Assembly: GCF_003334255.1 (NCBI RefSeq)
Contig: NZ_QOWU01000063.1
Direction: 5' to 3' (one strand)
From: Escherichia coli
GTDB taxonomy: Bacteria; Pseudomonadota; Gammaproteobacteria; Enterobacterales; Enterobacteriaceae
Length of the DNA: 26,113 bases
Position numbers and translations under genes: made by a program. The notes below the pieces were generated by a model. The model was not told the origin of the DNA, ran no database searches, and saw nothing but the letters and a program-made list of their open reading frames with translations. This document shows, piece by piece, positions 24,793 through 26,113 of this stretch (positions are counted from its first letter, which is position 1; every line of letters begins with the position of its first letter).

Positions 24793-26036
24793 TTAAGGTG
24801 TGGGTTGTGCCTCTTTGGTTGAGGGTTGCGTCGTTGCTGACTTAACGGTCGGACGCGTCGCCGGAACATTGTCACACGGTTGCTCTTTCGGGCAGATCAA
24901 ATCCAGCATTTTCAGCGTCACGCCATTGGTCCAGCCAAAGCCATCCTGTAATGGATATTCGCCACCGCCGCCCCCCGTTCCGGTGGTGCTGACATCATAT
25001 TTTTCCACCAGCTTTTTCTCCCGGTCATAGGTGTGCTGAACATTGGTCAGGAAGTGCCAGCTAATGTCCATCGCCACCTCTTTTTGCCCGTAGTTTTGTA
25101 ATCCTTCTGTCGCGACCCACTGTAACGGTGCCCAGCCATTTGGCGCATCCCATTGTTGCCCACTTTTCACCGACGTGGTGTTCAGGCCGCCGGGTTGCAG
25201 CAGATGTGTTTTCGTCGCCGTCGCCATTTTGTTGGCGCGATCTTTCGCTGCCGCATTGACGTACAGCGGGAACAGGGCGGCCGCGGTTAACTGATTGCGC
25301 ACTTTATGACTTTTCAGGTCGTAATCGGCATACCAGCCTTGTTGATCGTTCCACAGGTATTTTTCGATCCCTTTTTGACGGGCATTTGCCAGCGTTTCGT
25401 ACTGGTTTGCCATCGCGTTATCTCCGGCAGCTTTGCTGGCGCGGGCGAGGATTTTTTCCATTTTAAACATCAGGCTGTTCAGATCGACCGGTACGATGCT
25501 GGTGGTGCGTAAGGTATTTAACTGCTGCGGGTTGTCCATCCAGCGCGAGCTGAAATCCCAGCCAGACGCAGCGGCAGAGCGCAGGTCGCGGTAAATTTCA
25601 GTGGCAGGTCGATTCGGATTGCTTTTGGCGGTGGCAATATCTTCCACCCATGACTCTGGTCGTGGCGTATCGCGATCGTCCCAGTAGCGGTTGAGAAGGG
25701 TACCATCCTGAAGTTTGACAACGCGTTTTTCCTGTTGTCCGGCTTGCAGGTTTTCAACACCGTCCATCCAGTAAGCATATTCTTTTTGCATTTGCCGCAG
25801 GTATTGCTTCAACGCGGCATCGCCTTCATGCTGCGCCAGTAACTCTACCATCAGGGCAAAGAAGGGCGGTTGCGAGCGGCTTAAATAGTAACTGCGGTTG
25901 CCGTTGGGAATATGACCGTAAGTGTCTATTTCATGAGCAAAATTGGCCACCATATCCGCGACTTTATCCCAGTGACCGCTTTCGGCAAGTCCTAACATGG
26001 TGAAGTAACTGTCCCAGTAATATACCTCGCGAAAGC
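24793..26036 (-). pseudogene. treA: Periplasmic trehalase TreA, 3' ~414 codons only; 5' end interrupted by an IS1 terminus
   Basis: The ORF matches the TreA C-terminal region (…[47 protein letters not shown]…[21 protein letters not shown]…KEAQPTP). The frame stays open upstream to the IS1 junction at 26036/26037. No start codon or signal peptide is present in the window; about 150 N-terminal residues of the 565-aa protein are absent. Confidence 0.85.
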
Positions 26037-26113
26037 GGTGATGCTGCCAACTTACTGATTTAGTGTATGATGGTGTTTTTGAGGTGCTCCAGTGGCTTCT
26101 GTTTCTATCAGCT
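26037..26113 (+). mobile_element. IS1 terminus (partial): left-end inverted repeat plus first 7 codons of insA (GTG at 26092); element continues beyond the window
   Basis: GGTGATGCTGCCAACTTACTGATTTAGTGTATGATGGTGTTTTTGAGGTGCTCCAGTGGCTTCTGTTTCTATCAGCT matches the IS1 left end and is the exact reverse complement of positions 1-77. Confidence 0.9.

Follow-up and report, generated by a model that had tools for sequence, protein, structure and literature searches.

The locus raises a simple question. In a draft genome of Escherichia coli, the gene for the periplasmic trehalase TreA is cut off at its 5′ side exactly where the inverted repeat of an IS1 element begins. Either IS1 truly entered treA, or an intact gene was misjoined to, or broken at, an IS1 copy during assembly. 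The original prediction was that the insertion is genuine. Our analysis makes it very probable that IS1 transposed into treA and split the gene, leaving an allele that should be null for periplasmic trehalase.

Contig structure and the treA remnant

The window, by which we mean the whole stretch of DNA that was analysed, is the entire 26,113-bp contig QOWU01000063.1 of assembly GCA_003334255.1, i.e. a complete draft contig. It has a 77-nt terminal inverted repeat, nt 1-77 being the exact reverse complement of the last 77 nt (Table 1). It is a repeat-bounded short-read contig with overlaps one k-mer long (k = 77), and it stops 77 nt into IS1 for the sole reason that a short-read assembler is unable to cross a multicopy repeat. 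The inverted ends indicate that the contig is bracketed by two inverted IS1 copies, each of which shows its left end (IRL) to the segment between them. With these copies on both sides, the 26-kb segment runs from ycgH′ through minCDE, umuDC and dadAX to treA′.

The interior of the window (78-25000, 24.9 kb) matches the E. coli strains G1/2, G6/7, G8, B-1109 and cM8a at 100% identity, and K-12 at 99.9%. Every one of these strains has an intact treA, as had been expected for K-12 (hits H16 and H45). A Shigella origin, suspected from the IS1 load, is ruled out by the same interior matches to the E. coli strains and to K-12. The lineage carrying treA::IS1 is a small one; K-12 and the Symbioflor strains G1/2, G6/7 and G8 lie close to it. 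The sole hit of an Rfam scan of the window is the known small RNA C0299 (RF00119, 111.9 bits; 9743-9821 on the plus strand), which sits in the gap between the ORFs 8609-9652 (minus strand) and 9881-10300 (plus strand) and is ordinary for a K-12-like region.

Table 1. Features at the two ends of the window; positions are numbered from its first letter and a slash marks a junction.
Feature	Position	Strand	Basis or remark
IS1 left end (IRL), identical 77 nt in reverse complement; second, inverted IS1 copy	1..77	-	terminal inverted repeat
ycgH autotransporter pseudogene, 3′ part, cut by the second IS1 between 77 and 78	78..1348	+	reference reads ...atccgcaccg/tattaggtgatg
treA 3′ remnant, codons 152-565 and stop (stop at 24793-24795)	24793..26037	-	translation compared with intact TreA
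Longest remaining ORF that has a start codon; 401 aa, beginning at TreA Met165	24796..25998	-	ORF listing
Target-site duplication, one copy, 9 bp	26028..26036		CGCGAAAGC on the plus strand, GCTTTCGCG on the treA strand
IS1 left end (IRL), first 77 nt; points right, and the contig stops inside the element	26037..26113	+	exact match

The open minus-strand frame at the right end of the window corresponds to TreA residues 152-565, as aligned with the 565-aa TreA of G1/2, and it ends in KEAQPTP. All 1245 nt of this remnant are identical to the intact treA allele of G1/2 (100% identity, zero substitutions). The insertion is therefore recent, given that the remnant does not differ from the intact treA of the closest complete genomes. 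The NCBIfam model NF009774 (alpha,alpha-trehalase TreA) identifies the remnant as TreA with a score of 934.9 bits, well above its curated cut-off of 560, while the match covers only positions 156-569 of the 569-position profile.

What the window lacks are residues 1-151, in agreement with the prediction that the signal peptide and about 150 residues would be missing. In PDB 2jf4 the mature chain starts with residue 31, which makes residues 1-30 the signal peptide. The Pfam Trehalase domain of intact TreA spans residues 55-532, of which the first 97 are absent. The truncation thus takes away the signal for export together with the N-terminal fifth of the catalytic domain, and the window does not encode the complete catalytic domain with N-terminal signal peptide expected of a functional periplasmic TreA. 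The first start codon that the 3′ remnant could use is Met165; the 401-aa ORF that begins there has no signal peptide and is presumably non-functional. We also considered a translatable fusion of IS1 and treA, which is ruled out: the in-frame leader inside IS1 contains no ATG, GTG or TTG and is closed by a TGA lying about 89-91 nt inside the element, as read from a public contig that extends further into IS1 (L004). The left-to-right direction of IS1 leads away from the treA 3′ fragment, and transcription of the transposase is thus antisense to treA.

The two junctions between treA and IS1

A 414-nt query (25700-26113) that includes the IS1 end was compared with complete genomes. It matches at 77,633 places in 5,425 genomes, and across thousands of genomes the homology to treA stops at position 26037 (match of query positions 1-338). 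Past the break, the reference continues as ...cgcgaaagcg/tccgcccgg, whereas the window reads ggtgatgctgccaacttactgat... (also given as ggtgatgctgccaacttactgatttagtg...). Base 26037 (G) is common to treA and to the first base of IS1. The original claim that the treA frame runs to 26036 and then meets the inverted repeat is accurate: the frame is open to 26037, the shared base, and the exact left end starts there. The sequence GGTGATGCTGCCAACTTACTGAT... found here is the canonical left terminal repeat of IS1, and this identification is backed by RefSeq genomes, in which the matched stretch falls within features annotated as IS1 family transposase. The left end is exact over the 77 nt at 26037-26113, and again in reverse complement at 1-77.

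A search of 5,426 complete RefSeq E. coli genomes found neither the treA-IS1 junction (0/5,426) nor the ycgH-IS1 junction at the other end of the window. Where a complete genome matches over the full query, the match is in two pieces and involves an IS1 copy that sits elsewhere. A literature search for the assembly, the runs or the allele found no paper on an IS1 site at treA codons 152-154.

A junction that lies 77 nt from a contig end, with the final 77 nt being a repeat overlap one k-mer long, is where an assembly artefact might be looked for, i.e. an intact treA with the contig misjoined to or broken at IS1. The same junction, IRL/GCTTTCGCGAGGTAT, however, recurs in four public contigs (L003, L004, L014 and L015), having been assembled independently with k = 31, 77 and 119 from different samples and by different assemblers. 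In GCA_965136505.1 there is a second copy of the 26-kb contig, 26,197 bp long, that includes 119-120 nt of IS1 at the treA end (L004). The junction is also found in Logan k = 31 contigs from the runs ERR3331253 and ERR1948968, and these run unbranched from treA into IS1, as expected if no intact allele is present. SRR31654386 is a further sample that carries the junction. The complementary junction described below, with its perfect 9-bp target duplication, likewise argues against an artefact, the probability of which we regard as negligible.

A simple IS1 insertion makes a precise prediction about the missing half of the gene. On the treA strand, the 5′ part should read ...CGC TTT CGC G/GG TAA..., so that TreA residues 1-154 are followed by one glycine and then by a stop codon from the right end of IS1 (IRR), giving a product of 155 aa. 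Gene calls on 20 public contigs (ENA metagenome, Logan and NCBI assemblies) include exactly this 155-aa product. On each of these contigs it lies downstream of ychF-ycgV-dhaR-dhaKLM, the genes normally found on the treA 5′ side. All eight of the partner contigs inspected (L005-L012), which come from assemblies other than GCA_003334255.1, end in the IS1 IRR. Their junction reads ...GGACGCTTTCGCG/GGTAATGACTCCAACTT (also written ...GGACGCTTTCGCG/GGTAATGACTCC), or ...GCTTTCGCG/GGTAATGACTCCAACTT when taken from the duplicated target, with the IS1 right end GGTAATGACTCCAACTTATTGAT in place. The 5′ junction, from the treA 5′ part into the IRR, is represented by the string GGACGCTTTCGCGGGTAATGACTCC, and the intact site by GGACGCTTTCGCGAGGTATATTAC.

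The sequence GCTTTCGCG occurs at both junctions and as a single copy in the intact reference, and is thus a target duplication of the expected length of about 9 bp. Duplication of a 9-bp target is the biochemical signature of IS1 transposition. Elements of the IS1 family are about 768 bp long and encode InsA and, via a programmed frameshift, InsAB′. In L005, the 155-aa product is followed by a 43-aa fragment of the IS1 transposase that matches PF03400 (DDE_Tnp_IS1; InsB); the IS1 in treA is known here from its two ends together with this fragment. In addition, both junctions are present in one run, ERR1948968 (L009 and L015), from either an isolate or a mixed sample.

Taken together, the matching 9-bp duplication, the presence of both IS1 ends, the agreement of independent assemblers and the co-occurrence of the junctions in one run exclude an artefact and point to standard IS1 transposition. 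The predicted genuine insertion is therefore borne out by a reciprocal junction with a 9-bp duplication in the 8 contigs inspected of the 20 public ones. It was proposed to look for the treA 5′ part on the far side of IS1; that part was recovered in public contigs of other assemblies, while a partner contig from GCA_003334255.1 itself was not. Three points are to be added to the original prediction: the window is a whole contig bounded by repeats, another IS1 is present at the opposite end, and public data contain the missing half of treA.

The lack of a partner contig retrieved from GCA_003334255.1 is relevant to another explanation, namely an IS1-mediated adjacent deletion or replacement in the strain of the window, by which the treA 5′ part, and possibly dhaMLK, would be gone and IS1 would abut unrelated DNA. 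An event of this kind has happened independently in the blood isolate AH21B060 (NZ_CP196273.1). As in the window, an IRL there abuts a 5′-truncated treA in the same orientation, and the pseudogene is annotated without its N-terminus. AH21B060 differs in that the break lies near codon 30 and that a hypothetical protein, radC and a tyrosine integrase are found beyond IS1 (L001, 4640-4800); this unrelated, foreign DNA indicates that sequence was deleted or replaced there, which a simple insertion would not do. For the window, on the other hand, the 8 contigs inspected of the 20 all show the precise reciprocal junction together with its 9-bp duplication, reciprocal and window-type junctions come from the same run, and a second assembly has the same 26-kb contig. 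We therefore consider deletion or replacement very improbable as the origin of the window's junction, and it is unlikely that IS1 subsequently caused the treA 5′ part to be deleted in this one strain.

The second IS1 copy in ycgH

At the left end of the window, IS1 interrupts ycgH, which is annotated as frameshifted in G1/2, the closest complete genome; the ORF in the window spans 152-1348. The sequence TATTAGGTG at 78-86 is presumably the 9-bp target copy of this insertion, and CCGCACCGTATTAGGTGGGTAATGACTCC is the predicted partner junction in ycgH. Many unrelated complete genomes (H56-H67) have an IS1 of the IS1A/IS1B type within a few hundred bp, at other positions of ycgH, with match spans in the ycgH region of 464, 679 and about 1030-1105 bp. 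This part of ycgH would thus seem to be a local IS1 hotspot.

The arrangement of the two copies allows for an inversion, in which the 26-kb ycgH′-treA′ segment would be turned around between two inverted IS1 copies, such that the treA halves are no longer adjacent and the treA 3′ part faces the ycgH 5′ part across an IS1. The route could be homologous recombination between the IS1 copies, or the treA copy could have entered ycgH by duplicative intramolecular transposition. Both contig ends show the IRL, which is the geometry both needed for and made by an inversion. Furthermore, a 56,696-bp contig of a second NCBI assembly ends in the identical 439-aa partial TreA product (P0001) that is obtained with k = 77. 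This 56.7-kb contig points to a relative with treA::IS1 and without ycgH::IS1, and hence to the treA insertion coming first and the ycgH copy later. Two independent insertions, however, give exactly the same four junction sequences, so that nothing in the data favours an inversion, and independent IS1 insertions near ycgH are common in complete genomes. We regard an inversion as unlikely; treA would be affected alike in both cases.

Predicted consequences for periplasmic trehalase

In the proposed mechanism, an IS1 copy would have entered treA between codons 152 and 154 and duplicated the 9-bp target GCTTTCGCG. The 5′ piece would retain the promoter, the signal peptide and residues 31-154, followed by one glycine and the TAA stop from the right end of IS1. 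The 3′ piece, seen in the window, would hold residues 152-565 and would have neither a promoter of its own, nor a signal peptide, nor a start codon before Met165. Neither piece is expected to form a complete periplasmic GH37 catalytic domain, and without such a domain in the periplasm the allele should be null for periplasmic trehalase. Loss of this activity, as deduced from the gene structure, would mean that periplasmic trehalose is not hydrolysed and that leaked trehalose is not recaptured. External trehalose would also be unusable when high osmolarity shuts down the TreB/TreC route. The loss of trehalose use at high osmolarity reportedly follows from classical K-12 work (Boos et al. 1987, 1990; Strøm and Kaasen 1993), to which PMC11228248 refers.

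TreA hydrolyses periplasmic trehalose and its activity is increased under osmotic stress, while TreB and TreC use trehalose at low osmolarity and OtsAB make trehalose under osmotic stress (PMC11228248). The predicted phenotype, in which periplasmic trehalase is lost and the TreB/TreC route is left untouched, is consistent with this established pathway. The treBC, treF and otsBA loci lie outside the window. By analogy with ΔtreA mutants, the strain should still grow on trehalose at low osmolarity. The expected state, i.e. no periplasmic trehalase, would be the same as that of the engineered ΔtreA mutants of K-12 and of the ExPEC strain BEN2908. In contrast to these, treA::IS1 is a natural allele in a K-12/Symbioflor-like background and leaves two gene fragments behind. 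In BEN2908, ΔtreA retains growth on trehalose at low osmolarity, becomes more resistant to 0.6 M urea, and shows decreased type 1 fimbriae and bladder colonisation (PMC11228248).

Other lesions of treA may exist in public data. Several other short N-terminal TreA products (P0017, P0028, P0029 and P0030) recur in public assemblies: one of 229 aa on 50 contigs, one of 165 aa on 21, one of 123 aa on 24, and one of 221 aa with a frameshifted tail. Each could represent an additional independent lesion of treA, or simply a gene cut short where its contig stops. A broader reading would hold that some commensal or urinary lineages of E. coli are under selection to lose treA, the loss not being neutral, and that in the strain of the window the treA copy may have seeded a 26-kb IS1-bounded inversion. 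The lesions cited for it are the IS1 allele (on at least 20 public contigs, including gut metagenomes), that of AH21B060, and the possible nonsense or frameshift alleles P0028, P0030 and P0017, together with the reported rise in urea tolerance of ΔtreA (PMC11228248). We hold this reading to be distinctly improbable.

As an event, IS1 insertional inactivation is very well known, and the site at treA codons 152-154 is a new instance of it. The insertion shares with other IS1A/IS1R-type inactivations in E. coli and Shigella the GGTGATGCTGCCAACTTACTGAT... end (77 nt), the GGTAATGACTCCAACTTATTGAT end on the partner, the 9-bp duplication and the InsB fragment on the partner contig, with no mechanistic difference. 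It is otherwise a routine case of IS1 pseudogenisation that raises no new question on trehalose metabolism or transposition, and it illustrates why short-read contigs end at IS copies. Its two junctions provide a marker for precise PCR or k-mer typing of the lineage, which appears in gut metagenome assemblies. For E. coli, the finding adds what would be a natural treA-null allele in a strain background that is near both K-12 and a probiotic.
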